Positions 9,396 to 29,768 of a stretch of 64,000 nt of DNA are shown here, one piece after another. The notes under the pieces were generated by a model that searched no databases, had not been told where the DNA came from, and saw only the letters and a program-made list of their open reading frames with translations. The stretch covers positions 384,427 to 448,426 of the forward strand of contig CP011210.1 of NCBI GenBank assembly GCA_001029675.1, read 5' to 3'. Source of the DNA: Candidatus Beckwithbacteria bacterium GW2011_GWC1_49_16 (lineage in GTDB: Bacteria > Patescibacteriota > Microgenomatia > UBA1400 > CG1-02-47-37). Numbering within the stretch: the first letter of the stretch is position 1; each line of letters starts with the position of its first letter. The position numbers were made by a program, and so were the translations under genes.

Positions 9396-9416
9396 ATTCT
9401 AGAGTATATCAGATAG

Positions 9417-9490
9417 TGGATCCTGTAGGACTCGAACCTACGACCTTCCGGATGTAAACCGGACGCTCTAACCGGCTGAGCTAAGGATCC
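9417..9490 (-). tRNA. tRNA-Val (anticodon TAC)
   Basis: Manual fold: acceptor GGATCCT/AGGATCC, anticodon loop TTTACAT, T-loop GGTTCGAGTCC. Confidence 0.9.
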
Positions 9491-9492
9491 AG

Positions 9493-9590
9493 TGTGCTCT
9501 ATTTACGAACAACTTCGAACTATTTTTAAACAGCAGGCTCGGTGCTAACGCCCCTCGCCAAGCTCCGGCGCGGCTGACGCCGCGCCTCCG
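9493..9590. repeat. Inverted repeat A, left arm: a 34-bp block (9493-9526) and a 26-bp block (9565-9590) carrying hairpin GGCGCGGC-TGAC-GCCGCGCC
   Basis: Both blocks are exact reverse complements of 10142-10175 and 10102-10127. The spacers between the blocks differ in the two arms (38 nt here, 14 nt in the right arm). Confidence 0.85.
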
Positions 9591-9633
9591 CTATTTTTTT
9601 CGCGCGCGATTTTGTACTCGCTTCGCGAGCATT

Positions 9634-9861
9634 TTACTCTCTGATAATTGGTACCACTGTTGCTTTGGCACCTTTATCAGCAATCGTTTTCCCCGGAGCT
9701 GGCTGTTCAATTATAATTATTTGGTCTCTATTCAAAAGTTCTAACAACGCCGCCTGATCACCATCTAAACCGTTCACCACTAAATTAACTTCATGTTGCC
9801 CCCCCTCTTGCGGTTGCCCCCGCTTAGGAGTTTTTCCTAAATCTTGTTGTTTTTCTGCCAT
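9634..9861 (-). CDS. hypothetical protein (75 aa) inside module A
   Basis: Lone ORF with no recognisable motif. Confidence 0.3.
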   Translation of the reverse strand: MAEKQQDLGKTPKRGQPQEGGQHEVNLVVNGLDGDQAALLELLNRDQIIIIEQPAPGKTIADKGAKATVVPIIRE

Positions 9862-10101
9862 TTAAATATCACCTCCATTTCTTTCTGCGTTATAGCCTAC
9901 TAATTGGTTTGAAGTATACCAAAAATTGACAAATTATGCTAACATAAAACTGTGCTCGATAATTGTGGGGATTTTTAATGCCCTCATTGGACGGATCCTC
10001 ACAGATTCGAGCACAACCAGTGAGGGCATTTAAGTTTTGTTCTTTAAAAATTTTCGCGCTTTTTCTTTTCCGCCTTCGGCGGAATTTCGAGCCGACTTTT
10101 T

Positions 10102-10175
10102 CGGAGGCGCGGCGTCAGCCGCGCCGGATCTTACCTTTTTGAAAATAGTTCGAAGTTGTTCGTAAATAGAGCACA
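10102..10175. repeat. Inverted repeat A, right arm
   Basis: Reverse complement of the left-arm blocks. Abuts repeat B by 5 nt, sharing GCACA. Confidence 0.85.
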
Positions 10176-10260
10176 AAAGGAGATCGGAAGGGTAGGCGCT
10201 GGCCGCGCCCGCCCTCACGGCCAGCGCCGCAGAGGCTTCGGACAGGGAAAATTCGAGCCG
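10171..10260. repeat. Inverted repeat B, left arm (90 bp; internal 11-bp-stem hairpin GGCGCTGGCCG...CGGCCAGCGCC)
   Basis: Exact reverse complement of 11728-11817. Confidence 0.9.
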
Positions 10261-10323
10261 GAAAAGAAAAAGAAGTAAGTGAAAAAGCGCGAAAATTTAA
10301 AACAAAAGAACAAGACAATAAAT

Positions 10324-11904
10324 ATGATCAAATACATCGCTTACTGCCGAAAATCAACTGATGAAAAAGACAAACAAATCATGTCTATTGAACAACAAAT
10401 GGAGGAATTGAAAGCATTTGCTCAAAGAGAGAATTTGGAAATTTCACAATTTCTGACAGAAGCGGAAACCGCGAAAGTTCCCGGACGACCAATTTTCAAT
10501 TCTCTTATTACCTTAATTGAAAAAGGACTTATCAACGGAATTATCAGTTGGCACCCGGACAGACTAGCTAGAAATTCAATTGATGGCGGAAAAATAATTT
10601 ATCTAGTCGATACTGGAAAATTACAAGCCCTAAAATTCCCGTCTTTTTGGTTTGAGAATACCCCGCAAGGAAAATTTATGCTTTCAATTGCTTTTGGTCA
10701 GTCAAAGTATTATGTGGATAATCTTTCCGAAAATGTTAAACGAGGATTGTATTTCAAACTTCGCCGTGGAGATTGGCCGTCTTACGCGCCATTAGGATAC
10801 AAAAACGATAGAAACACAAGGAGCGTGATGATAGAACCGCGCTCTGCGCGGCTAGTAAAAGAGGCATTCAAAAACTTTGCCTCGGGCGAATTTTCTTCAA
10901 TGAAAGATATTCGTGATCTATTTTTCAAAAACGAGATAACTCGTAGAAATGGAAAGCCTTTACATTTTAACCAAATTAGAGAAATGCTTCAGCGGACCTT
11001 TTATTATGGTTTGATGACGTATCGCGGAGAAACCTACGAAGGAAAACACAGGCCACTCATAACCAAAAAACTTTTTGATGAAGTGCAGAAAGTTTTGGAG
11101 AAGAAATATAACAGGAAACCGCAGAAACACGATTTTGCGTTTACTGGCTTTATCAAATGTAAAGAGTGCGACAGTTTCTTCACCGCTGAAAAACACAAAA
11201 AGTTTTATCCCAAAACCAGAGGCGAAGTTTGGTACACCTATTACCGTTGTGTAAAGAAAAAAGGTGTTTGCTCACAACCGTATTTACCAGAATCAGAACT
11301 TGAGAAACAATTACGAGATTTAATTGGCAGTGTTTCTCTCTCCGAAGTATTGGCAAACAAACTTTTGGCGATGGCAGAAAAGGACGGAGAGAAAGAAAAG
11401 CAGTTCGCCGTTGGCGAACTCCAAAAACTCTCATTTTCTCTAACTGAAATTGAAAAGAAACTGGATAAACTTCTCGAAAGCTATTTGGAAGAGATTGTTG
11501 ACACTGAAAGTTATCAAAGGAAAAAAGACGAGTTGCTTCAAATTAAAAAACTTTTGCAAGAGGAAATCGAGGAAATTAAGACCAAAGGTTCGAGTTGGCT
11601 CGAACCACTCAAAGAATTTATAAAAGAGGCCGCTGATGCGGCTAAAATCGCGCGCGCAAAAAATAATTGCAAAGATCTGGCGATCTTTGCAAAAAAAGTC
11701 GGCTCGAACTACTTCTTAAATGACAAGCGGCTCGAATTTTCCCTGTCCGAAGCCTCTGCGGCGCTGGCCGTGAGGGCGGGCGCGGCCAGCGCCTACCCTT
11801 CCGATCTCCTTTTGTGCCGAGGACAGGAGTTGAACCTGCACGGGCAAAGCCCACTACGTCCTCAACGTAGCCTGTCTACCAGTTCCAGCACCTCGGCATG
11901 TTAA
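10324..11904 (+). CDS. large serine recombinase (resolvase catalytic domain + recombinase domain + zinc ribbon + coiled coil)
   Basis: Catalytic motif YCRKSTDEKDKQ..SIEQQ, Cys cluster CKECD...YYRC, and a C-terminal coiled coil. Start is taken at MIKYIAYC, matching the paralog at 13311-14837. The open frame has no stop until 11904, so its tail is encoded by repeat B' and the antisense of tRNA-Leu(GAG) and is probably fortuitous. Confidence 0.8.
   Translation: MIKYIAYCRKSTDEKDKQIMSIEQQMEELKAFAQRENLEISQFLTEAETAKVPGRPIFNSLITLIEKGLINGIISWHPDRLARNSIDGGKIIYLVDTGKLQALKFPSFWFENTPQGKFMLSIAFGQSKYYVDNLSENVKRGLYFKLRRGDWPSYAPLGYKNDRNTRSVMIEPRSARLVKEAFKNFASGEFSSMKDIRDLFFKNEITRRNGKPLHFNQIREMLQRTFYYGLMTYRGETYEGKHRPLITKKLFDEVQKVLEKKYNRKPQKHDFAFTGFIKCKECDSFFTAEKHKKFYPKTRGEVWYTYYRCVKKKGVCSQPYLPESELEKQLRDLIGSVSLSEVLANKLLAMAEKDGEKEKQFAVGELQKLSFSLTEIEKKLDKLLESYLEEIVDTESYQRKKDELLQIKKLLQEEIEEIKTKGSSWLEPLKEFIKEAADAAKIARAKNNCKDLAIFAKKVGSNYFLNDKRLEFSLSEASAALAVRAGAASAYPSDLLLCRGQELNLHGQSPLRPQRSLSTSSSTSAC
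11728..11817. repeat. Inverted repeat B, right arm
   Basis: Reverse complement of 10171-10260. Overlaps the last 3 nt of tRNA-Leu(GAG). Confidence 0.9.
11815..11897 (-). tRNA. tRNA-Leu (anticodon GAG), class II
   Basis: Manual fold: acceptor GCCGAGG/CCTCGGC, anticodon loop TTGAGGA, T-loop GGTTCAACTCC. Confidence 0.75.
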
Positions 11905-11906
11905 AG

Positions 11907-11991
11907 TGCCACGGGTGAGAGTCGAACTCACACGAGCCAAAGGCCCACACGCTCCTGAAGCGTGCCTGTCTGCCAGTTCCAGCACCGTGGC
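11907..11991 (-). tRNA. tRNA-Leu (anticodon CAG), class II
   Basis: Manual fold: acceptor GCCACGG/CCGTGGC, anticodon loop TTCAGGA, T-loop GGTTCGACTCTC. Confidence 0.8.
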
Positions 11992-12042
11992 CCAAACCAA
12001 ACTTAAAGATATTTTAGCACAATCTGGTATACTAGAAGCCGA

Positions 12043-12115
12043 GGCAGGGTAGCCAAGGCGGTCACGGCGGGCGTCTGAAAAACGTCAGATACTGGTTCGA
12101 TTCCAGTCCCTGCCA
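12043..12115 (+). tRNA. tRNA-Phe (anticodon GAA)
   Basis: Manual fold: acceptor GGCAGGG/CCCTGCC, anticodon stem GGCGT/ACGTC with loop CTGAAAA, T-arm ACTGG-TTCGATT-CCAGT. Confidence 0.75.
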
Positions 12116-12123
12116 CAGACGGA

Positions 12124-12912
12124 ATGAGTAAAGACCACCAAACATTGAATGAATTCGTTAACCGTTTCTGGTATGTGCCTTCTGATATAGTGGCTAGACT
12201 AGCTGAGGCCTTGGTTTGGCAGGAACGCAGTTTTAAAAAACCAGTTTTAGACATTGGCTGCGGTGATGGCAGTATTGGTGAGTTGATTTTTAAAGGTAAA
12301 GTAATTGACATGGGGATAGATTTAAATCAGAAAGCCATTGAGACAGCGGCTGACAGCGATGTTTATAAAAAGACGAGAGCGGCCGATGCGACCAAATTGC
12401 CCTTTAAAAACAACAGCTATCAAACAGTGGTCAGCAACAGCACCTTTGAACACATTAACGACGATGTGCAAGCGGTCAAAGAAGCTTATCGAGTCTTAGA
12501 GCCTGGCGGTTATTTGTATTTGACTGTGCCGACGGATAAGTTTGAAGCAGCCGTTGCCAGGTTAGCCAGAACAGAGAAGAATTTAGCCAGAATTAATCAA
12601 AGGCTGGCACATTATCACTATCACAGTTTAAAGGACTGGAGAGTAATTTTAAAAAGGACCGGTTTTCAAACAGTTGAATTTAAGTATTTTTTCCCGGAGA
12701 GAATGGTCAATGTTTGGTATAGATTTTTTCGGCTAGTCACTTTTAAGCCAAATAAAAGGGAGTTGTGGTCTTATTTGAGCGACGATCGTTTTAAAAGGTT
12801 TATGCCAAAGAAATTGATAAAGGTGATTCTGTTTAAATATTTTCAAGGTTTTTATGGTGATTTATTCTCAAAGAAGGGTTGTTTGTTGTTTATCAAAGCG
12901 CTTAAGCGATGA
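12124..12912 (+). CDS. class I SAM-dependent methyltransferase
   Basis: Motif I VLDIGCGDGSIGE, plus the later acidic and LEPGG motifs of Methyltransf_11-type enzymes. Confidence 0.75.
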   Translation: MSKDHQTLNEFVNRFWYVPSDIVARLAEALVWQERSFKKPVLDIGCGDGSIGELIFKGKVIDMGIDLNQKAIETAADSDVYKKTRAADATKLPFKNNSYQTVVSNSTFEHINDDVQAVKEAYRVLEPGGYLYLTVPTDKFEAAVARLARTEKNLARINQRLAHYHYHSLKDWRVILKRTGFQTVEFKYFFPERMVNVWYRFFRLVTFKPNKRELWSYLSDDRFKRFMPKKLIKVILFKYFQGFYGDLFSKKGCLLFIKALKR

Positions 12913-12945
12913 TATAATGCCTAAGCTAATTAGTGAGTTTAAAGT

Positions 12946-13018
12946 GCGGGAGTAGCTCAGCTGGTAGAGCGTCTCGTTGCCAACGAGAAGGTCGCGGGTT
13001 CGAATCCCGTCTCCCGCT
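12946..13018 (+). tRNA. tRNA-Gly (anticodon GCC)
   Basis: Manual fold: acceptor GCGGGAG/CTCCCGC, anticodon loop TTGCCAA, T-loop GGTTCGAATCC. Confidence 0.9.
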
Positions 13019-13049
13019 CAAAACTGATTTCTTGTGGTAAAATTAGCCT

Positions 13050-13241
13050 ATGGTGTTAGGTAAAAGTCCGGAGTCCAGGCCGGGAGGCGACGGGCAGAGC
13101 CCGGAAGCGCCCGAGAAGCAGATTAAAAAGTCTTCGGCGCCGTCACCGTTGTCTTTAAAAGAGATCGCTTGGACTGCTGATAATGAGCTTAAGTTTCAGA
13201 TGGGCAATATGCACGGCGAGGTGCCGGTGAAGAAACCTTAA
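13050..13241 (+). CDS. hypothetical small protein (63 aa) between two tRNAs
   Basis: ORF only. Low complexity (Pro/Ser/Glu-rich). Confidence 0.2.
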   Translation: MVLGKSPESRPGGDGQSPEAPEKQIKKSSAPSPLSLKEIAWTADNELKFQMGNMHGEVPVKKP

Positions 13242-13270
13242 GGTTAAGATTTTGTTATAATTATCCCACT

Positions 13271-13339
13271 GCCGGATGGTGAAATGGCATCACAGAGGCC
13301 TTTGAAGCCTTTATTCTAGGTTCGAATCCTGGTCCGGCA
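13271..13339 (+). tRNA. tRNA-Gln (anticodon TTG), slightly atypical short D-arm
   Basis: Acceptor GCCGGAT/GTCCGGC, anticodon loop CTTTGAA, T-loop GGTTCGAATCC. At 69 nt the fold is a little irregular. Confidence 0.55.
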
Positions 13340-14837
13340 ACAGATTGGAATTTTTTTCAGAATTTTTCGCGTCGGTGGGGCGCGACGCGAATACATTCCA
13401 GCCTGGTGAGACGTAATTTACCAAGAGTTTTTGATTGTCTAAAAACAGGTTCGAGCTGACAGTTTTTGCCATGAATGCTAATTCAGGGCCATTATTTTTT
13501 GCGCGCATTGTTTTCCAGGCGTGAAGCGCCTGGTCTGTCCAATTAGAAAAAGGTTCGAGCCAAGAGTTGCCTGTGATGTTAATCTCCTTGAGTTTTTCTT
13601 GTAAGCCGGCCTTGGCTTGGATTAGTTCGTTTTTCTTGTCCTGGTAGCTTTGGGGATCAATCAGCTGGTCTAAGTAGGCATTGAGCAACCGGTCAAGCTT
13701 GGTTTCGATTGTCTTCAATTCATTATTTAAACCGTTAATTTCCGCCACGCTTTTGAGCTTGGCAGTTTGGCGGTCTTTTTCCAGCCAGGCAAGAAACTTT
13801 TTGTAGGCGGTCGGGGCTAAACTGACTTTTTGGATAATCTGCCTCATTTGAGTTTCCAGCTCTTTTTTAGGAGTATACCGCTGGTTACATTTACCTTTCT
13901 TTTTAGAACAACGGTAATAAGTATAAGTAACGGTATTGTTTGTCCGAGGGTAAAACTTGGTATGGGTTTCAGCGGTGATTGATGAACCGCATTCTCGGCA
14001 TTTAATCAATCCTAAAAAGTCAAACCCGGATTTAATGGAATTTTCCTGCCGTGAATGCTGTTTGACGATTTTTTGACAGCGGTCAAAAAGTTTCTTAGAA
14101 ATTAACGGCAGGTGGTTTCCGGCAAAGAGTTCGCCGCCAAAATTCATCAAGCCATAATAAAAGGGGTTAGATAAAATCCGCCGGGAAATGCTATCCAAAT
14201 GGATCGGTTTTCCCGCCCGGCTGAAAACCTTGTTTTGGCTCAAAAATCGCCGCATATCCACGTAAGTATAGCGGCCGGTAGCAAATAGCCTGAAGGCTTT
14301 GGCTATAAACTTGGCGCGGTTGGGGTCAACCACGATAGTTTTATCCGCTTTGTTGTTTAGGTAGCCAAGTGGGGCTTTGTTAGGCCAGTCGCCGCGCCTA
14401 AGTTTTTGCCGATTCCCCCGCTTAACATTTTCGGAAAGATTATCCACATAATACTTGGCTTCGGAAAAGGCCATGGAGATCATGAATTTGCCCTGCGGTG
14501 TATTGTCAAACCAGAAGGTGGGAAACTTTAGGTCAAGTAACTTGCCGGTATCCAGAAGGTAAATAATCTGGCCGCCGTCAATCGAGTTTCTGGCCAGCCG
14601 ATCGGGATGCCAGGCTAAAATTCCTTGGATCTCCCCCGCTTCAATTAATTGAATTAGTTGGTTAAATTCCACTCTACCAGGAATTTTGGCGGTTTTTGAT
14701 TCGGTGATAAATTTAACAATCTGTAAGTTTTCCCGTTGGGCGAACTCTTTTAATTCTTCAATCTGGCTTTCGATTGATAGCACCTGTTTATCTTTTTCGT
14801 CGGTACTTTTTCGACAGTAGGCGATGTATTTAATCAT
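13311..14837 (-). CDS. large serine recombinase, paralog of 10324-11904
   Basis: N-terminus MIKYIAYCRKSTDEKDKQVLSIESQ, zinc ribbon CRECGS...YYRC, coiled coil. The last ~35 codons lie in repeat C, and the final 8 codons plus the stop overlap the 3' end of tRNA-Gln. Confidence 0.85.
   Translation of the reverse strand: MIKYIAYCRKSTDEKDKQVLSIESQIEELKEFAQRENLQIVKFITESKTAKIPGRVEFNQLIQLIEAGEIQGILAWHPDRLARNSIDGGQIIYLLDTGKLLDLKFPTFWFDNTPQGKFMISMAFSEAKYYVDNLSENVKRGNRQKLRRGDWPNKAPLGYLNNKADKTIVVDPNRAKFIAKAFRLFATGRYTYVDMRRFLSQNKVFSRAGKPIHLDSISRRILSNPFYYGLMNFGGELFAGNHLPLISKKLFDRCQKIVKQHSRQENSIKSGFDFLGLIKCRECGSSITAETHTKFYPRTNNTVTYTYYRCSKKKGKCNQRYTPKKELETQMRQIIQKVSLAPTAYKKFLAWLEKDRQTAKLKSVAEINGLNNELKTIETKLDRLLNAYLDQLIDPQSYQDKKNELIQAKAGLQEKLKEINITGNSWLEPFSNWTDQALHAWKTMRAKNNGPELAFMAKTVSSNLFLDNQKLLVNYVSPGWNVFASRPTDAKNSEKNSNLLPDQDSNLE
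13341..13418. repeat. Inverted repeat C, left arm (78 bp; internal hairpin TCGCGTCG...CGACGCGA)
   Basis: Reverse complement of 15300-15377 with one mismatch. Starts 1 nt after the discriminator base of tRNA-Gln. Confidence 0.9.
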
Positions 14838-15252
14838 TTTTTTTAATCCAACTAGACAATATTATCCCAATTAGAATTGTTAATGATATTGAGATTAAAA
14901 TATTACATATTGGTATCAGATTAAATACCGTCTGTAATGTTTGTAATAAAGTAAAAAATATGGCAATAAAACTTAGTGAAAGTGTGGTTCTTTGTAAACT
15001 AATATTTGTTTTTTCTAGTTTTTGACTTTGTTCATTAAGACTTTTTATTGTTGAGTTTAATCTCCGAAGTTTAATGTCTAGCTTTAACATCAATCCTATA
15101 TTTGTGATAAAACTGAAAACTTGCCAACCCTCTGGTGTGTTACTTTTAAGCCCAGCGTTTGTGCGCACATCTTGGGCAAGTTTGAGAATTTCTTCAAAAG
15201 GAAAGTCTTTGATTTTCTTTAAACGCTCGTCTATCGGAATTTCTTTATTCAT
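14830..15252 (-). CDS. hypothetical protein with a C-terminal TM segment, overlapping the recombinase start by 8 nt
   Basis: 140 aa ORF. N-terminal soluble part, then a hydrophobic tail. Confidence 0.45.
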   Translation of the reverse strand: MNKEIPIDERLKKIKDFPFEEILKLAQDVRTNAGLKSNTPEGWQVFSFITNIGLMLKLDIKLRRLNSTIKSLNEQSQKLEKTNISLQRTTLSLSFIAIFFTLLQTLQTVFNLIPICNILISISLTILIGIILSSWIKKND

Positions 15253-15299
15253 AGTTTTTTAAAATATTGCGTTTTCTTTTCCTGTTTTTATTTCCTTTT

Positions 15300-15377
15300 A
15301 ATTACGTTTCACCAGGCTGGAATGTATTCGCGTCGCGCCCCACCGACGCGAAAAATTCTGAAAAAAATTCCAATCTG
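15300..15377. repeat. Inverted repeat C, right arm
   Basis: Reverse complement of 13341-13418. Directly contiguous with repeat D. Confidence 0.9.
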
Positions 15378-15481
15378 TTGACAGTTTACCGAAAAGTTCG
15401 AACTTCTTTCCAGCAAATTGTTAAATGATTGGCTCGGCCGCTGCGTGGCCTCGCCTTTTTGGCACTCGCTTCGCTCGTGCC
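15378..15481. repeat. Inverted repeat D, left arm (104 bp, hairpin-rich)
   Basis: Exact reverse complement of 16711-16814. Confidence 0.9.
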
Positions 15482-15586
15482 TTGAAAACTGTCAGCTCGA
15501 AGCAGATTACTATCTGCTAAAAGAAAACGCAAAATTTTTAAAGAGCTAGATCAATTTGAATACATTAAGTAGTATAATAGATTGAT

Positions 15587-16324
15587 ATGTGGGTAACAAT
15601 ACTTGTAATTGCCATTATCCTTTATTACTTCTATTACAAATTAGAAAAAAGGGTTAATTTTCTTGAAAAAAGCAAAGGCCCAGGATATTCTGTTCGTTTT
15701 CGAATAGATGCTCATAATGCGGTTATAAAACACAAAATGCTTGGCAAGCTTACAAATATTCAAAGCGCAATAAAAGGAAAAGATTACAGTAGCTGGACTG
15801 AAACTGAAAAAAGTAAGTTAAGAAAAATTTACAAAAAATCACTTGATAAAAGTATCGTTGATATTACCTATTTAGCTTCAGAAAACGCTTATTTTATAAA
15901 TGATGGGCATAAAACTAATATTGTGTTAAGAGATGAAATAAGTACGTTAATATACTCTTCATTTGTAATTGGAGACGAAAATACAATTGAATCACCTGTC
16001 ATTGAATTTTCAGTTTATGAAAGATTAGTGAAAGAGGGTAAAAATAACTATAAATGGGTATTAGCTCCATGTCTTGAATATCGTGAAAATATGCTTGATT
16101 TAGAAAAGAAAAATGACCAAATTGACATACTGTTTGAATTTCCACTTTATGAAAACCATGATGAACAAAAAATGAAACAGTTGGGATTTAAAGTTACTAC
16201 CAATAAAGATTACCCGGAAGGATGTAAAGATATTTTCGGGAAAGAGTTTGCGTTTACTCAAAGTATCTATGAAAAAAATGGAGTTGAATTAAAATATTTT
16301 ACAATGTATACAAGCTTGAATTAA
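15587..16324 (+). CDS. hypothetical protein with an N-terminal TM helix (AT-rich)
   Basis: 245 aa ORF with no recognisable motif. Confidence 0.45.
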   Translation: MWVTILVIAIILYYFYYKLEKRVNFLEKSKGPGYSVRFRIDAHNAVIKHKMLGKLTNIQSAIKGKDYSSWTETEKSKLRKIYKKSLDKSIVDITYLASENAYFINDGHKTNIVLRDEISTLIYSSFVIGDENTIESPVIEFSVYERLVKEGKNNYKWVLAPCLEYRENMLDLEKKNDQIDILFEFPLYENHDEQKMKQLGFKVTTNKDYPEGCKDIFGKEFAFTQSIYEKNGVELKYFTMYTSLN

Positions 16325-16336
16325 TTATAAACTTTT

Positions 16337-16600
16337 ATGACAAAGGATTTTACAAATTATTGTGATGATTCTGGACAAAAAATTTATGTTGGAGATCTAG
16401 TTACATTAGCATCTCCCCTCAAAAATGAAATTGATAAAATAAACATTTTTAAAGTTGTAAAAGGTAAAAACGATTACGAAATTGTATTTTACAAAGGATC
16501 AATGAGTAGTACAGATAGAAATTACCGACAAAAATTATCCGGAGCATATAAAGTAATTGGCAATATTAAAACAGGGATTGATGAGAGTTTGTTAGAGTAG
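16337..16600 (+). CDS. hypothetical small protein (87 aa)
   Basis: ORF 13 nt downstream of the previous gene. Confidence 0.4.
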   Translation: MTKDFTNYCDDSGQKIYVGDLVTLASPLKNEIDKINIFKVVKGKNDYEIVFYKGSMSSTDRNYRQKLSGAYKVIGNIKTGIDESLLE

Positions 16601-16710
16601 ATCTTGGTTATAGGCATTAGATTTGAATGTTATAATAACTTTATTAGTAATAAAGCGATCAGAAAACTCGCCCGTAAGGGCGAGCAATGCGCGCAAAAAA
16701 TAATGTAAAG

Positions 16711-16814
16711 GCACGAGCGAAGCGAGTGCCAAAAAGGCGAGGCCACGCAGCGGCCGAGCCAATCATTTAACAATTTGCTGGAAAGAAGTTCGAACTTTTC
16801 GGTAAACTGTCAAC
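16711..16814. repeat. Inverted repeat D, right arm
   Basis: Reverse complement of 15378-15481. Followed by two tight GC hairpins (CCCCGG-AGTGA-CCGGGG and AAGCCC-GAAA-GGGCTT). Confidence 0.9.
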
Positions 16815-28619: not shown

Positions 28620-29768
28620 CTACGGGACCAAGGAGATGGCGACGCCTTTTTTGTCGGCCCGGGCGGTGCGGCCGATGCGGTGGATATAATCATCTTCTGT
28701 TTCGGGCAAGTCAAAATTAATCACGTGGGTAACGCCCTCAATATCTAAACCCCTTTGGGCGACGTCGGTGGCCAAAAGCACCTTGACGCCACCGGTTTTA
28801 AATTGGGCTAAAGCCCGTTGGCGCTGATTTTGGCTTTTATTGCCGTGGATGGCGGTGGCTTTAAGGCCTTTTTGGATTAAGGCTTGCGCCAGTTTTTCCA
28901 TGCCCCACTTAGTGCGGCCAAAGACCAGCACCCGGTCAAAACCCGGTTTGGTTAACAGCTCGCAAAGCACGTCGATTTTGTTTCTGCCGCTAACTTTGAC
29001 AACTTCTTGGTCAACGTTGTCGGCGATATCCCCTCTTTTAACCGAAATGATCACCGGGTTTCTTAAAAAGCCGGCCATGAGCTGCCTGACTTTGCCTTCG
29101 ACGGTGGCGGAAAAAAACAGAGACTGTCTCACTTTGGGCAAAAGCGAAATTAGCTGCTTGACGTCGTTTATAAAGCCCATGTCCAGCATCCGGTCCACCT
29201 CGTCAAGGACGATGGTGGTAAAACCGGTTAAATCTAAAATCCGTCTTTTTACCAAATCTTTTAACCGGCCGGGAGTGCCGATGACAAAAGGCGGTTTTTG
29301 ACGCAAGCGGCTGATTTGGCGGTTTATCCCGGCGCCGCCGATACAAAGCGCCGAATAAAGGTTAAGGCTGGCGGCAAGTTCAATAAATTCCGCCTCGATT
29401 TGTGCCGCCAGTTCCCTGGTGGGGGTGATGACCAAGACTTTCTCGCGGCGATTTTTGGCGGCTTTGTCGATTAGAGGAATTAAAAAAGCTGCGGTTTTGC
29501 CCGTGCCGGTGTTGGCAACACCGACCACGTCTTTACCGGAAGAAACCAGTGGGATCACTTGGTCCTGGATCGGCGTGGGGATTAAATACCCTTTGGCCTT
29601 AGCGTTTGCTTTAACCTGATTTGAAACCGGAAAGTCGGCGAAATCATTTTTAATGGCCACGACGTCCAGCTTTGATTGGCTCTTGGTTTTTTGAATGAAC
29701 CAGGACGGATTAAATGATCGGGGTTGCCTTCTTACCCGGAAGGAGCGGTGGTGGGGACGACGGAACAT
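28620..29768 (-). CDS. DEAD-box ATP-dependent RNA helicase
   Basis: Q-motif PTPIQ, Walker A ANTGTGKT, DEVD, SAT, HRIGRTAR. Confidence 0.9.
   Translation of the reverse strand: MFRRPHHRSFRVRRQPRSFNPSWFIQKTKSQSKLDVVAIKNDFADFPVSNQVKANAKAKGYLIPTPIQDQVIPLVSSGKDVVGVANTGTGKTAAFLIPLIDKAAKNRREKVLVITPTRELAAQIEAEFIELAASLNLYSALCIGGAGINRQISRLRQKPPFVIGTPGRLKDLVKRRILDLTGFTTIVLDEVDRMLDMGFINDVKQLISLLPKVRQSLFFSATVEGKVRQLMAGFLRNPVIISVKRGDIADNVDQEVVKVSGRNKIDVLCELLTKPGFDRVLVFGRTKWGMEKLAQALIQKGLKATAIHGNKSQNQRQRALAQFKTGGVKVLLATDVAQRGLDIEGVTHVINFDLPETEDDYIHRIGRTARADKKGVAISLVP

Follow-up and report, generated by a model that had tools for sequence, protein, structure and literature searches.

Paired inverted-repeat modules at tRNA genes of a Candidatus Beckwithbacteria genome: probable serine-recombinase elements with an internal inverted attachment site

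Four modules bounded by long inverted repeats (A to D) lie between positions 9493 and 16814 of a 64,000-nucleotide stretch of the Candidatus Beckwithbacteria bacterium GW2011_GWC1_49_16 genome (contig CP011210.1), the whole of which was analysed here and is referred to as the window, and two of the modules, B and C, encode a large serine recombinase (LSR). The modules very probably belong together in pairs, A+B (element 1) and C+D (element 2) each constituting one tRNA-targeting LSR integrative element that carries an internal, inverted copy of its own attachment site (attP). A and D are the cargo compartments, and B and C the LSR compartments, of the same elements. The kind of element, a tRNA-targeting integrative element, is already known. 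An earlier note on this DNA, made from the sequence alone, knew of no described family to match these modules, and searches of the literature, including full text, indeed found no account of the family or its architecture. Moreover, we know of no precedent among serine-integrase systems, and found none in the literature, for the two repeat-bounded compartments, the internal inverted attP, the zinc-ribbon-domain (ZD) motif in the tRNA T-loop and the linked pseudoknot RNA described below.

Anatomy of the two elements

An inverted-repeat search recovered the four repeat pairs at the positions given in the earlier note (Table 1). In the rest of the window it returned a single weak inverted repeat (33 nt, 76% identity, at 29172/33202), and a chance origin is dismissed for perfect repeats of 80–107 nt. 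Inspection of the arms likewise bore out the GC-rich hairpin described in each of them and the contiguity of neighbouring arms, those of A and B sharing GCACA (10171–10175) and those of C and D overlapping by GTTG (15377–15380). The gene content also stood as described: B and C each hold an LSR with Resolvase, Recombinase and Zn_ribbon_recom domains, module C has in addition a 140-aa open reading frame (ORF) beside the LSR, and A and D contain only small ORFs to which family searches assigned no family.

Both elements have the layout x·core·a[cargo]a'·core'·b[LSR]b'·core·tRNA, in which x is the host flank, a/a' and b/b' are the arms of the two repeats, and the core stands at three junctions, direct at both outer ones and inverted in the middle (TGTGC/GCACA/TGTGC in A+B, CAAC/GTTG/CAAC in C+D). 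The outer, direct copies (TGTGC at 9493 and 11813; CAAC at 13338 and 16811) occur likewise in 41 elements, and the outer junctions resemble the attL (x·a) and attR (b'·tRNA) that a single integrated element would have. Reverse-complemented, the middle junction (a'·core'·b) matches exactly, over ~200 nt, the attP (b'·core·a) predicted at the junction of an excised circle. Each inverted repeat consists of half of this internal attP copy together with one end of the element, which is why every element has two repeat pairs that abut and have an inverted core of 2–6 nt in common.

The tRNA genes meet the arms closely. The last 3 nt of tRNA-Leu are within the distal arm of B, whose final 3 nt they form, and those of tRNA-Gln are within the distal arm of C, whose first 3 nt they form (the two genes score 50.6 and 62.7 bits, respectively); only 2 nt separate the outer arm of A from the 5' end of tRNA-Val(tac). 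Both LSR frames extend past the conserved protein, across the distal arm and into the tRNA gene in antisense.

Assemblers are able to create perfect inverted duplications, and contigs do break at the arms, so that a fold-back artefact, for which the earlier note had suggested a check, would give the same picture. However, contigs of the same population from different assemblers and projects (ENA k141, JGI, NCBI metagenome-assembled genomes and Logan) gave the same sequence, collinear with the window at 99.7–100% identity and present in over 13 assemblies made independently, and 49 of 56 homologous loci, complete genomes included, share the architecture with other arm sequences. Because independent assemblies agree and the architecture recurs in dozens of other genomes, an artefact is excluded, its probability being negligible. 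Among more than 13 same-species contigs no variant in orientation or presence was seen; all are collinear and all carry the elements. Contig ends fall within or at the arms at window positions 9530, 9627, 10213, 10247, 11814 and 16708 (L092, L081, L082, L089, L087 and L097); they are explicable by repeats confusing assemblers, and could also mask heterogeneity of orientation.

The two LSRs are 508–526 aa long and match the resolvase catalytic domain PF00239 with E-values of 1e-18 to 1e-22. In an alignment of 18 homologues Y7, C8, R9, K10 and S11, which include the R-x-S motif, are invariant; PF07508 and PF13408 score above their cut-offs, with C280, C283, C310 and C317 invariant in the same alignment, and inspection of the sequence after the zinc ribbon (approximately residues 340–430) revealed a heptad-like stretch rich in Lys, Glu and Leu. 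The best PHROG match is the integrase family phrog_95. With the NCBIfam LSR equivalogs (XisF, CcrA/B/C and the IS607 transposase), the best scores were 94–102 bits against cut-offs of 375–900. The protein is an ordinary member of the LSR superfamily that lies outside all curated equivalog families. Homologues number more than 7,800 at E<1e-20, and nearly all of the named ones come from the Candidate Phyla Radiation (CPR)/Patescibacteria.

Between the two elements are a gene for an S-adenosylmethionine-dependent methyltransferase (12124–12912) and three tRNA genes, Phe, Gly and Gln (12043–13341), the whole 9.4–16.8 kb stretch being a tRNA cluster colonised from both sides.

Table 1. Features of the two elements in window coordinates, with one remnant at a homologous locus (last row)
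Position	Strand	Feature	Basis or detail
9416–9490	-	tRNA-Val(tac), host flank x at the cargo-side (left) end of element 1	ARAGORN; Rfam 73.7 bits
9493–9590	.	Arm a, element 1; outer 5 nt TGTGC = core; pairs with 10102–10175	Module A repeats 9493–9533/10135–10175 (41 nt, 95%) and 9560–9590/10102–10132 (31 nt, 97%)
9591–9613	+	T-run/GCGCGCG motif, element 1 (reverse complement of LSR 3' RAKNN motif)	22 nt, 95% complementary to 11644–11665
9634–9861	-	Cargo ORF, element 1, 75 aa	No family match
9939–10036	+	Pseudoknotted RNA, promoter-proximal, LSR strand, element 1	Covariance-model match 73.3 bits; covariation
10044–10100	+	Motif M (AAAATTTTCGCGCTTTTTCTTT), small hairpin, TTCGAGCCGAC, ahead of arm a'	
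10102–10175	.	Arm a', element 1	
10171–10260	.	Arm b, element 1; GCACA 10171–10175 = inverted core common with a'	Module B repeat, pairs with 11728–11817 (90 nt, 100%)
10324–11904	+	LSR B; conserved protein stops near 11727, frame continues through b' into tRNA-Leu	
11644–11692	-	RAKNN-coding motif and 10-bp hairpin h in LSR B 3' end	
11728–11817	.	Arm b', element 1; last nt TGTGC = core, supplying the tRNA-Leu 3'-terminal nt	
11815–11897	-	tRNA-Leu(gag), attB-side half-site of element 1, convergent with LSR B	ARAGORN, Rfam
13270–13340	+	tRNA-Gln(ttg), attB-side half-site of element 2, convergent with LSR C	ARAGORN, Rfam
13338–13418	.	Arm b', element 2 (C+D, reversed in the window), core CAAC	Module C repeat, pairs with 15300–15380 (81 nt, 99%)
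13311–14837	-	LSR C; conserved protein stops near 13419, frame continues through the arm into tRNA-Gln	
14830–15252	-	140-aa ORF, second cargo slot between leader and LSR C	Missing in close relative L001
15300–15380	.	Arm b, element 2	
15377–15483	.	Arm a', element 2; GTTG 15377–15380 = inverted core common with arm b	Module D repeat, pairs with 16708–16814 (107 nt, 100%)
15485–15545	.	KTVSSN-like motif (15485–15508) and motif M (15519–15542), inner side of arm a', element 2	
15587–16600	+	Cargo ORFs of element 2, 245 aa and 87 aa	No significant family match
16685–16705	.	RAKNN-type motif, inner side of arm a, element 2	Exact 21-nt reverse complement of 13490–13510 in LSR C
16708–16814	.	Arm a, element 2; core CAAC 16811–16814; P'-type half-site with TTCGAAC at +17	
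5726–6068 of L076		Remnant: cargo, RNA, a', core, b/b' scar, intact tRNA-Gln	

Homologous loci, attachment sites and arms

Homologous loci were surveyed by scripted analysis in species-representative genomes (80 loci, with 56 LSR genes having adequate flanks and 70 having downstream sequence). The LSR is flanked by a repeat at 49 of the 56 loci, with arms of 76–130 nt, and a second repeat, enclosing 0.7–7 kb, abuts on the LSR 5' side at 36 of the 56. A tRNA gene lies at the LSR 3' end at 48 of 56 loci with adequate flanks and at 59 of 70 with downstream sequence, convergent in every case, the targets covering fifteen standard identities. The two repeat pairs overlap mostly by 4–5 nt and by 2 nt in L033 and L047, and an overlap of 2–5 nt fits the 2-bp crossover of serine recombinases. 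The elements are 2–9 kb in size and without phage or conjugation genes, and the a' unit persists upstream of the LSR even at loci where the distal arm is absent or lies over 8 kb off.

At L076 a full cargo-side unit stands without a nearby LSR, the LSR having been deleted between b and b' with tRNA-Gln kept (Table 1). Decayed remnants and tandem accretion were found at L046, L080 and L030. The tRNA cluster of the window (Leu-cag, Leu-gag, Val-tac, Phe) is present at L046 (14834–15190) too, with a remnant of ~196 nt (LSR 3' end, b' and core) between Leu-gag and Val-tac; the Leu-gag/Val-tac site has been targeted repeatedly. L011 (7403–8000) and L015 (7377–7979), like the window (14830–15252), have a second slot for cargo, which lies after motif M' of the leader and ahead of the LSR start codon.

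One of two readings offered in the earlier note was a new family of serine-recombinase mobile elements with A and D as non-autonomous relatives. The new family stands; the unit was wrong, A and D being the cargo halves of the same elements. Four independent terminal-repeat transposons, with B and C autonomous and A and D mobilised in trans, would account for the distinct repeat pair of each module and for the short motifs resembling the LSR 3' end beside the arms of A and D, yet such an origin is highly improbable. The order is invariably cargo, LSR, tRNA; tblastn found no LSR remnant in 41 cargo modules, which also disposes of the idea that A and D are decayed LSR modules; and cargo modules were not found alone, M–a' units without a downstream LSR having been inspected and the checked case, L076, proving to be a deletion scar. 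Furthermore, there are no target-site duplications, single modules have no flanking direct duplication, and the arm sequences are unique to each element and not dispersed elsewhere in the window. The module ends are inverted sites with cores such as TCAC, CAAC and CC, which contain no palindromic dinucleotide, and since the cores are inverted and often lack such a dinucleotide, a serine recombinase could not excise or insert a single module alone. Movement of single modules by way of a palindromic central dinucleotide was considered, and is possible for GC-containing cores and impossible for TCAC, CAAC and CC. An insertion-sequence or miniature inverted-repeat family as the source of the repeats, also raised in the earlier note, fell on the same grounds: no target-site duplication, element-specific arms and no solitary modules. 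Rather than transposons that duplicate their target, the elements are integrants specific for the 3' ends of tRNA genes.

Read toward the core, the conserved core-proximal sequence of arm a is TTCGAAC-N-TTTTCGTAAA-core, and in element 1 the core is followed by a P'-type half-site of ~25 nt, with TTCGAAC at +17, and then by the GC hairpin. TCGAAC starts at +16/17 in arm a as against +12 in the tRNA, where it belongs to the T-loop, the difference being +4/+5 in 23 loci (other offsets are regex mis-hits). For LI integrase, the ZD motif is 5 bp closer to the centre in attB than in attP (Rutherford et al., PMC3783163). Because the offset matches this published shift, arm a appears to act as a P'-type and the tRNA T-arm as a B'-type half-site.

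Closely similar LSRs are found at different tRNA genes, with pairs 94.5% (Leu-cag/Arg-tcg), 92% (Tyr-gta/Arg-tcg) and 86% (Lys-ctt/Arg-gcg) identical, and all the target tRNAs of these pairs end in ..G(C/A)ACCA. The targets of LSRs that are 82–94% identical have only the T-loop and the 3' end in common, an unusually relaxed choice of tRNA for a serine integrase, and near-identical LSRs occupy different tRNAs because generic tRNA features are targeted. The right junctions of L042, L047, L039, L079, L060 and L076 place LSRs of 82–94% identity at tRNA-Leu, -Arg, -Tyr and -Lys.

We infer, with good support, that the LSR integrates the element at tRNA 3' ends by way of attP (b'·core·a). On the excised circle this site would be recombined with the tRNA 3' end, the crossover falling within the last few tRNA nucleotides, which arm b' would restore. 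The TTCGAAC of the T-loop would serve as the B'-type ZD motif and the copy in arm a, 4–5 bp farther out, as its P'-type counterpart. The empty sites predicted on this basis are GGATCCAG-TGTGC-CGAGGACAGG for element 1 and GGTCCGG-CAAC-CAACACGTG for element 2.

The arms of one element resemble each other more than they resemble those of other elements. For the cargo repeat the median identity is 0.986 within the element versus 0.908 to the nearest other (within exceeding nearest in 34/41), and for the LSR repeat 0.990 versus 0.887 (35/41), which suggests that gene conversion keeps the arms of one element identical. At several loci the cargo repeat extends 10–35 nt beyond the core into b, a creep of the repeat boundary that is expected from gene conversion. 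Mismatches between arms showed no strand bias of the wobble (G·T) type, and arm identity is therefore a DNA-level phenomenon. A gradient of arm conservation from the core was computed and was uninformative owing to indels. Homology between arms a and b, as from a palindromic ancestral attP, was rejected, local alignment scores being barely above those of shuffled controls. The b arm of the window and that of a Shapirobacteria element (L040) at tRNA-Leu(caa) share 98.9% identity, and the corresponding LSRs are 90% identical; such identity across CPR lineages indicates recent horizontal spread.

These features of the arms bear on a further explanation, in which a single-stranded copy of the element (for example, DNA imported by competence) would fold b'·core·a onto a'·core'·b, giving a duplex attP or a structure for priming or expression, in a way comparable to attP1/attP2 of the CTX phage. 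Folding would explain why the internal site and the circle junction are exact reverse complements over ~200 nt, the route of transfer is left open by the lack of conjugation and phage genes in the cargo and by near-absence from viral contigs, and near-identical arms do occur in different CPR lineages. We nevertheless regard single-strand folding as very unlikely, as arm mismatches have no wobble-compatible strand bias and no evidence of single-stranded forms was found; by our own reasoning, moreover, if a serine recombinase cut the stem against a duplex attB, the chromosome would be broken and its ends capped by hairpins, and recovery would take extra steps.

The cargo is diverse, with 69 Pfam families among 84 ORFs and no recurrent gene. 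It includes Alw26I-type restriction-modification, Shedu, AbiEii-like ATPases, EamA transporters, a deformylase and, once among the 84 ORFs, a reverse transcriptase. Close relatives have swapped cargo while their arms stayed alike: between L001 and element 2 the LSR has 86% nucleotide identity and the arms ~88–94%, yet their cargo interiors are unrelated, and L001 lacks the 140-aa ORF. A phage origin was rejected, IMG/VR yielding 2 weak matches only.

Leader, orientation and the internal site

Upstream of a' the alignment shows a conserved sigma-70-like promoter (TTGTTT-N17-TATATT), which is followed by an element of ~100 nt with two long-range helices in a pseudoknot topology. In 27 sequences 98.5% of the cells pair, compared with 30–42% in slid controls, and 17 of 22 pairs show double-sided changes. 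A U·G pair conserved in 25 of the 27 sequences suggests an RNA on the LSR strand. A covariance model detected 48 copies in 1.03 Mb, of which 45 lie on the LSR strand, 300–480 nt before the start codon; examples are window 9939–10036 (+), L004 1620–1724 and L015 7022–7124. An Rfam search of the arms and the conserved block returned only tRNAs, the pseudoknot RNA being without an Rfam family. Element 1 keeps the RNA, and element 2 has lost it and retains motif M. A guide-RNA function was considered and dropped, the variable positions of the pseudoknot being compensatory within stems and the variants of stem B not tracking the tRNA target. Likewise, no conserved small ORF that could encode a recombination directionality factor (RDF) was found upstream of a', the apparent conservation being at the DNA level.

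The same RNA also occurs outside the repeat architecture. At L080 (LSR element at 12883–14512; region 9502–14480) a second LSR, 22% identical to LSR C, has the RNA directly upstream and an abutting tRNA-Glu, and no inverted repeats. Because this repeat-less, 22%-identical LSR has the same RNA, the pairing of RNA and LSR is older than the repeats, and the layout of L080 may be a simpler ancestral arrangement. An older repeat-bearing element now lies 5 kb away, displaced by the repeat-less one in an instance of tandem accretion. In the repeat-bearing family the internal site, with an imperfect flanking repeat M/M', sits between the RNA and the LSR. In short-leader variants, sequence inspection revealed no evident promoter in the stretch from arm b to the ATG; if there is none, the LSR is probably transcribed through a'·core'·b.

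Both element ends appear to carry inward-facing, terminator-like sites at which, to judge from the sequence, transcription may stop. Read in antisense, hairpin h and the A-rich codons for RAKNN at the LSR 3' end form a hairpin with a T-run, facing the tRNA gene, and at the opposite end of the element a T-run/GCGCGCG motif follows the GC hairpins of arm a, in other loci too. Hairpins of this kind at both ends would insulate the element from transcription of the tRNA gene and the flank. The LSR 3' ends (window 11644–11692; L024, L032, L061 and L069) have two conserved hairpins and an A-run, and their nucleotide conservation is greater than the protein sequence demands.

The orientation of the compartments is nearly constant. 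The LSR compartment has the same orientation beside its tRNA at 59 of 59 loci with a called tRNA, among the 70 with downstream sequence, and because cargo is always on the LSR 5' side, it is never flipped relative to the tRNA. Cargo orientation can be read from a conserved non-coding block, which in 40 of 41 elements lies at the LSR-proximal end and on the LSR strand. In the remaining one, L028, the cargo interior is inverted exactly between the arms, with the RAKNN motif preceding a' and the RNA distal on the other strand. As the sole inverted case in 41, it indicates that inversion occurs, yet is rare or selected against. A search of JGI metagenome contigs for the flipped isomer of module D gave 0 matches, with low power as few contigs of the population are present there.

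These counts bear directly on the second reading in the earlier note, that of independently invertible segments, of which one part holds, namely that repeats bracket segments with a recombinase nearby, and the other, that both orientations occur, is not borne out by these counts (LSR 0/59, cargo 1/41). In its developed form the compartments would be flipped by the LSR or by RecA as a two-bit switch for mobility and cargo expression, a cargo flip re-aiming the promoter, RNA and cargo genes and an LSR flip exposing the LSR to read-through from the tRNA promoter. Long perfect repeats around each segment, inverted cores on which a serine recombinase would invert rather than excise, the precise inversion in L028 and population contigs that often terminate inside arms would all fit. 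We nevertheless consider a switch unlikely, given the constant orientations, the more than 13 same-species contigs that all have the window orientation and the failure to find the flipped-D pattern; contig breaks at repeats, moreover, are expected from assembler mechanics alone. According to PMC3783163, recombination of attP with attL or attR is not carried out by canonical serine integrases, which also speaks against a switch. More doubtful still is the specific proposal that inversion of the LSR segment within b/b' would uncouple the integrase from its regulated leader and place it behind the strong tRNA promoter, turning a dormant element into a mobile one, with a cargo flip re-aiming the promoter. 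If true, the switch would be a new control of mobility for a serine-integrase element without an RDF, the leader RNA being a second new regulatory layer.

With tRNA-targeting integration as the preferred reading of the elements, the position of the internal attP copy, in the LSR 5' leader after the promoter and the pseudoknot RNA, would suit an integrase-binding operator or insulator for autoregulation, a role that we put forward tentatively, as possible and no more than that. The copy could also be a stable reserve of the attachment site which, being inverted, would not be lost by direct-repeat deletion, and recombination between arms would occasionally invert a compartment. The identity of the elements combined with this role of the internal site makes the best overall explanation, in which we have moderate confidence.

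Several observations weigh against this explanation. Across 41 cargo modules no RDF or other conserved partner gene recurs, although RDFs are diverse and the lack of a recurrent small gene falls short of proving absence. The opposite half-sites have no common motif, x being arbitrary and b' near the core containing no TTCGAAC and only a loose GATTTC..GGTG pattern, and att sites with a single recognisable half are unusual among serine integrases. For the window elements neither an excised circle nor an empty site nor a second orientation was observed, two metagenome scans, one for the flipped isomer of D and one for the empty site, giving no match; the earlier note had suggested seeking these tRNA genes without the modules, and all same-species contigs carry the elements, the empty-site pattern (tRNA-Val, 0–30 nt, tRNA-Leu) giving 0 matches in a metagenome scan. 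Presence/absence polymorphism or excision is supported only indirectly, by the near-identical LSRs at different tRNAs and by the decayed remnants at the tRNA cluster of L046. L028 and L037 have no tRNA at the junction, where the distal arm (at 9500 and 9495, respectively) is followed, in place of a tRNA, by sequence with a CGAAC-like motif; integration at a pseudo-site, or rearrangement at a later time, may account for them. The operator or autoregulatory role is conjectural and held with low confidence, and it fails by itself to explain why ~100 nt per arm are duplicated rather than ~25 nt. Finally, no step-by-step origin of the internal copy could be derived from tandem integration, inversion or fold-back.

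Significance and relation to known systems

The CPR/Patescibacteria make up a large share of bacterial diversity, and their mobile elements are nearly uncharacterised. The present family is very abundant, often with several copies per genome, and moves defence, transport and metabolic genes across lineages. Its attachment logic, based on the universal tRNA T-loop, explains how near-identical integrases come to reside at different tRNA genes, and the family is a source of compact integrases with simple, portable targets that could serve genome engineering. The internal inverted attP, giving two repeat-bounded compartments, has no described counterpart that we found among serine-integrase elements, and the pseudoknot RNA, absent from Rfam, is linked even to a 22%-identical integrase. 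For the annotation of CPR genomes, the arms explain why contigs frequently break beside tRNA genes and why recombinase ORFs are spuriously extended.

The integrase modules of phiC31, Bxb1 and A118/LI resemble the elements described here in their domain set, in a core on the 2-bp scale, in the position of the integrase gene at the element end and in attP/attB half-sites with a common ZD motif offset by ~5 bp. In contrast to those systems, the elements here target generic features of many tRNAs, namely the 3' end and the T-loop, each att site has one recognisable half-site, no RDF was found, the elements are of 2–9 kb without phage or conjugation genes, and an inverted attP with ~100 nt per arm is carried internally. 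We know of no internal inverted attP in the serine-integrase modules of prophages or integrative and conjugative elements.

An LSR likewise mobilises Tn4451 (TnpX), Tn5397 (TndX) and SCCmec (CcrAB), elements of small to medium size that pass through a circular intermediate and for which no RDF is known. In NCBIfam the window LSRs score best against CcrA/B/C and XisF, although at ~100 bits they are far under the cut-offs of 375–900. The targets of Tn4451, Tn5397 and SCCmec differ from those of the window elements and, to our knowledge, they have neither long inverted repeats nor an internal att copy.

The tycheposons of Prochlorococcus are reportedly compact elements at tRNA genes in streamlined genomes, with diverse accessory and defence cargo and, in some cases, serine recombinases. 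Like the window elements, they are compact integrative elements at tRNA genes with variable cargo; we know of no tycheposon with inverted-repeat compartments, an internal att copy or a leader RNA.

The nearest structural analogies, mechanistically different, are the yeast 2-micron plasmid and the internal complementary region of DIRS1. In the 2-micron plasmid, FLP acts on FRT sites in inverted repeats that lie between two unique segments, one of them encoding the recombinase. By analogy, this corresponds to the two repeat-bounded compartments, except that the plasmid uses a tyrosine recombinase, replicates and has both isomers in abundance, whereas the window elements have no replication gene and one orientation. 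DIRS1-type retroelements contain an internal segment that is the inverted complement of their joined termini, that is, of the circle junction, much as the internal site is here; they are eukaryotic and combine a reverse transcriptase with a tyrosine recombinase, while the elements described here move, in all likelihood, by a serine recombinase, a reverse transcriptase being present once among their 84 cargo ORFs.

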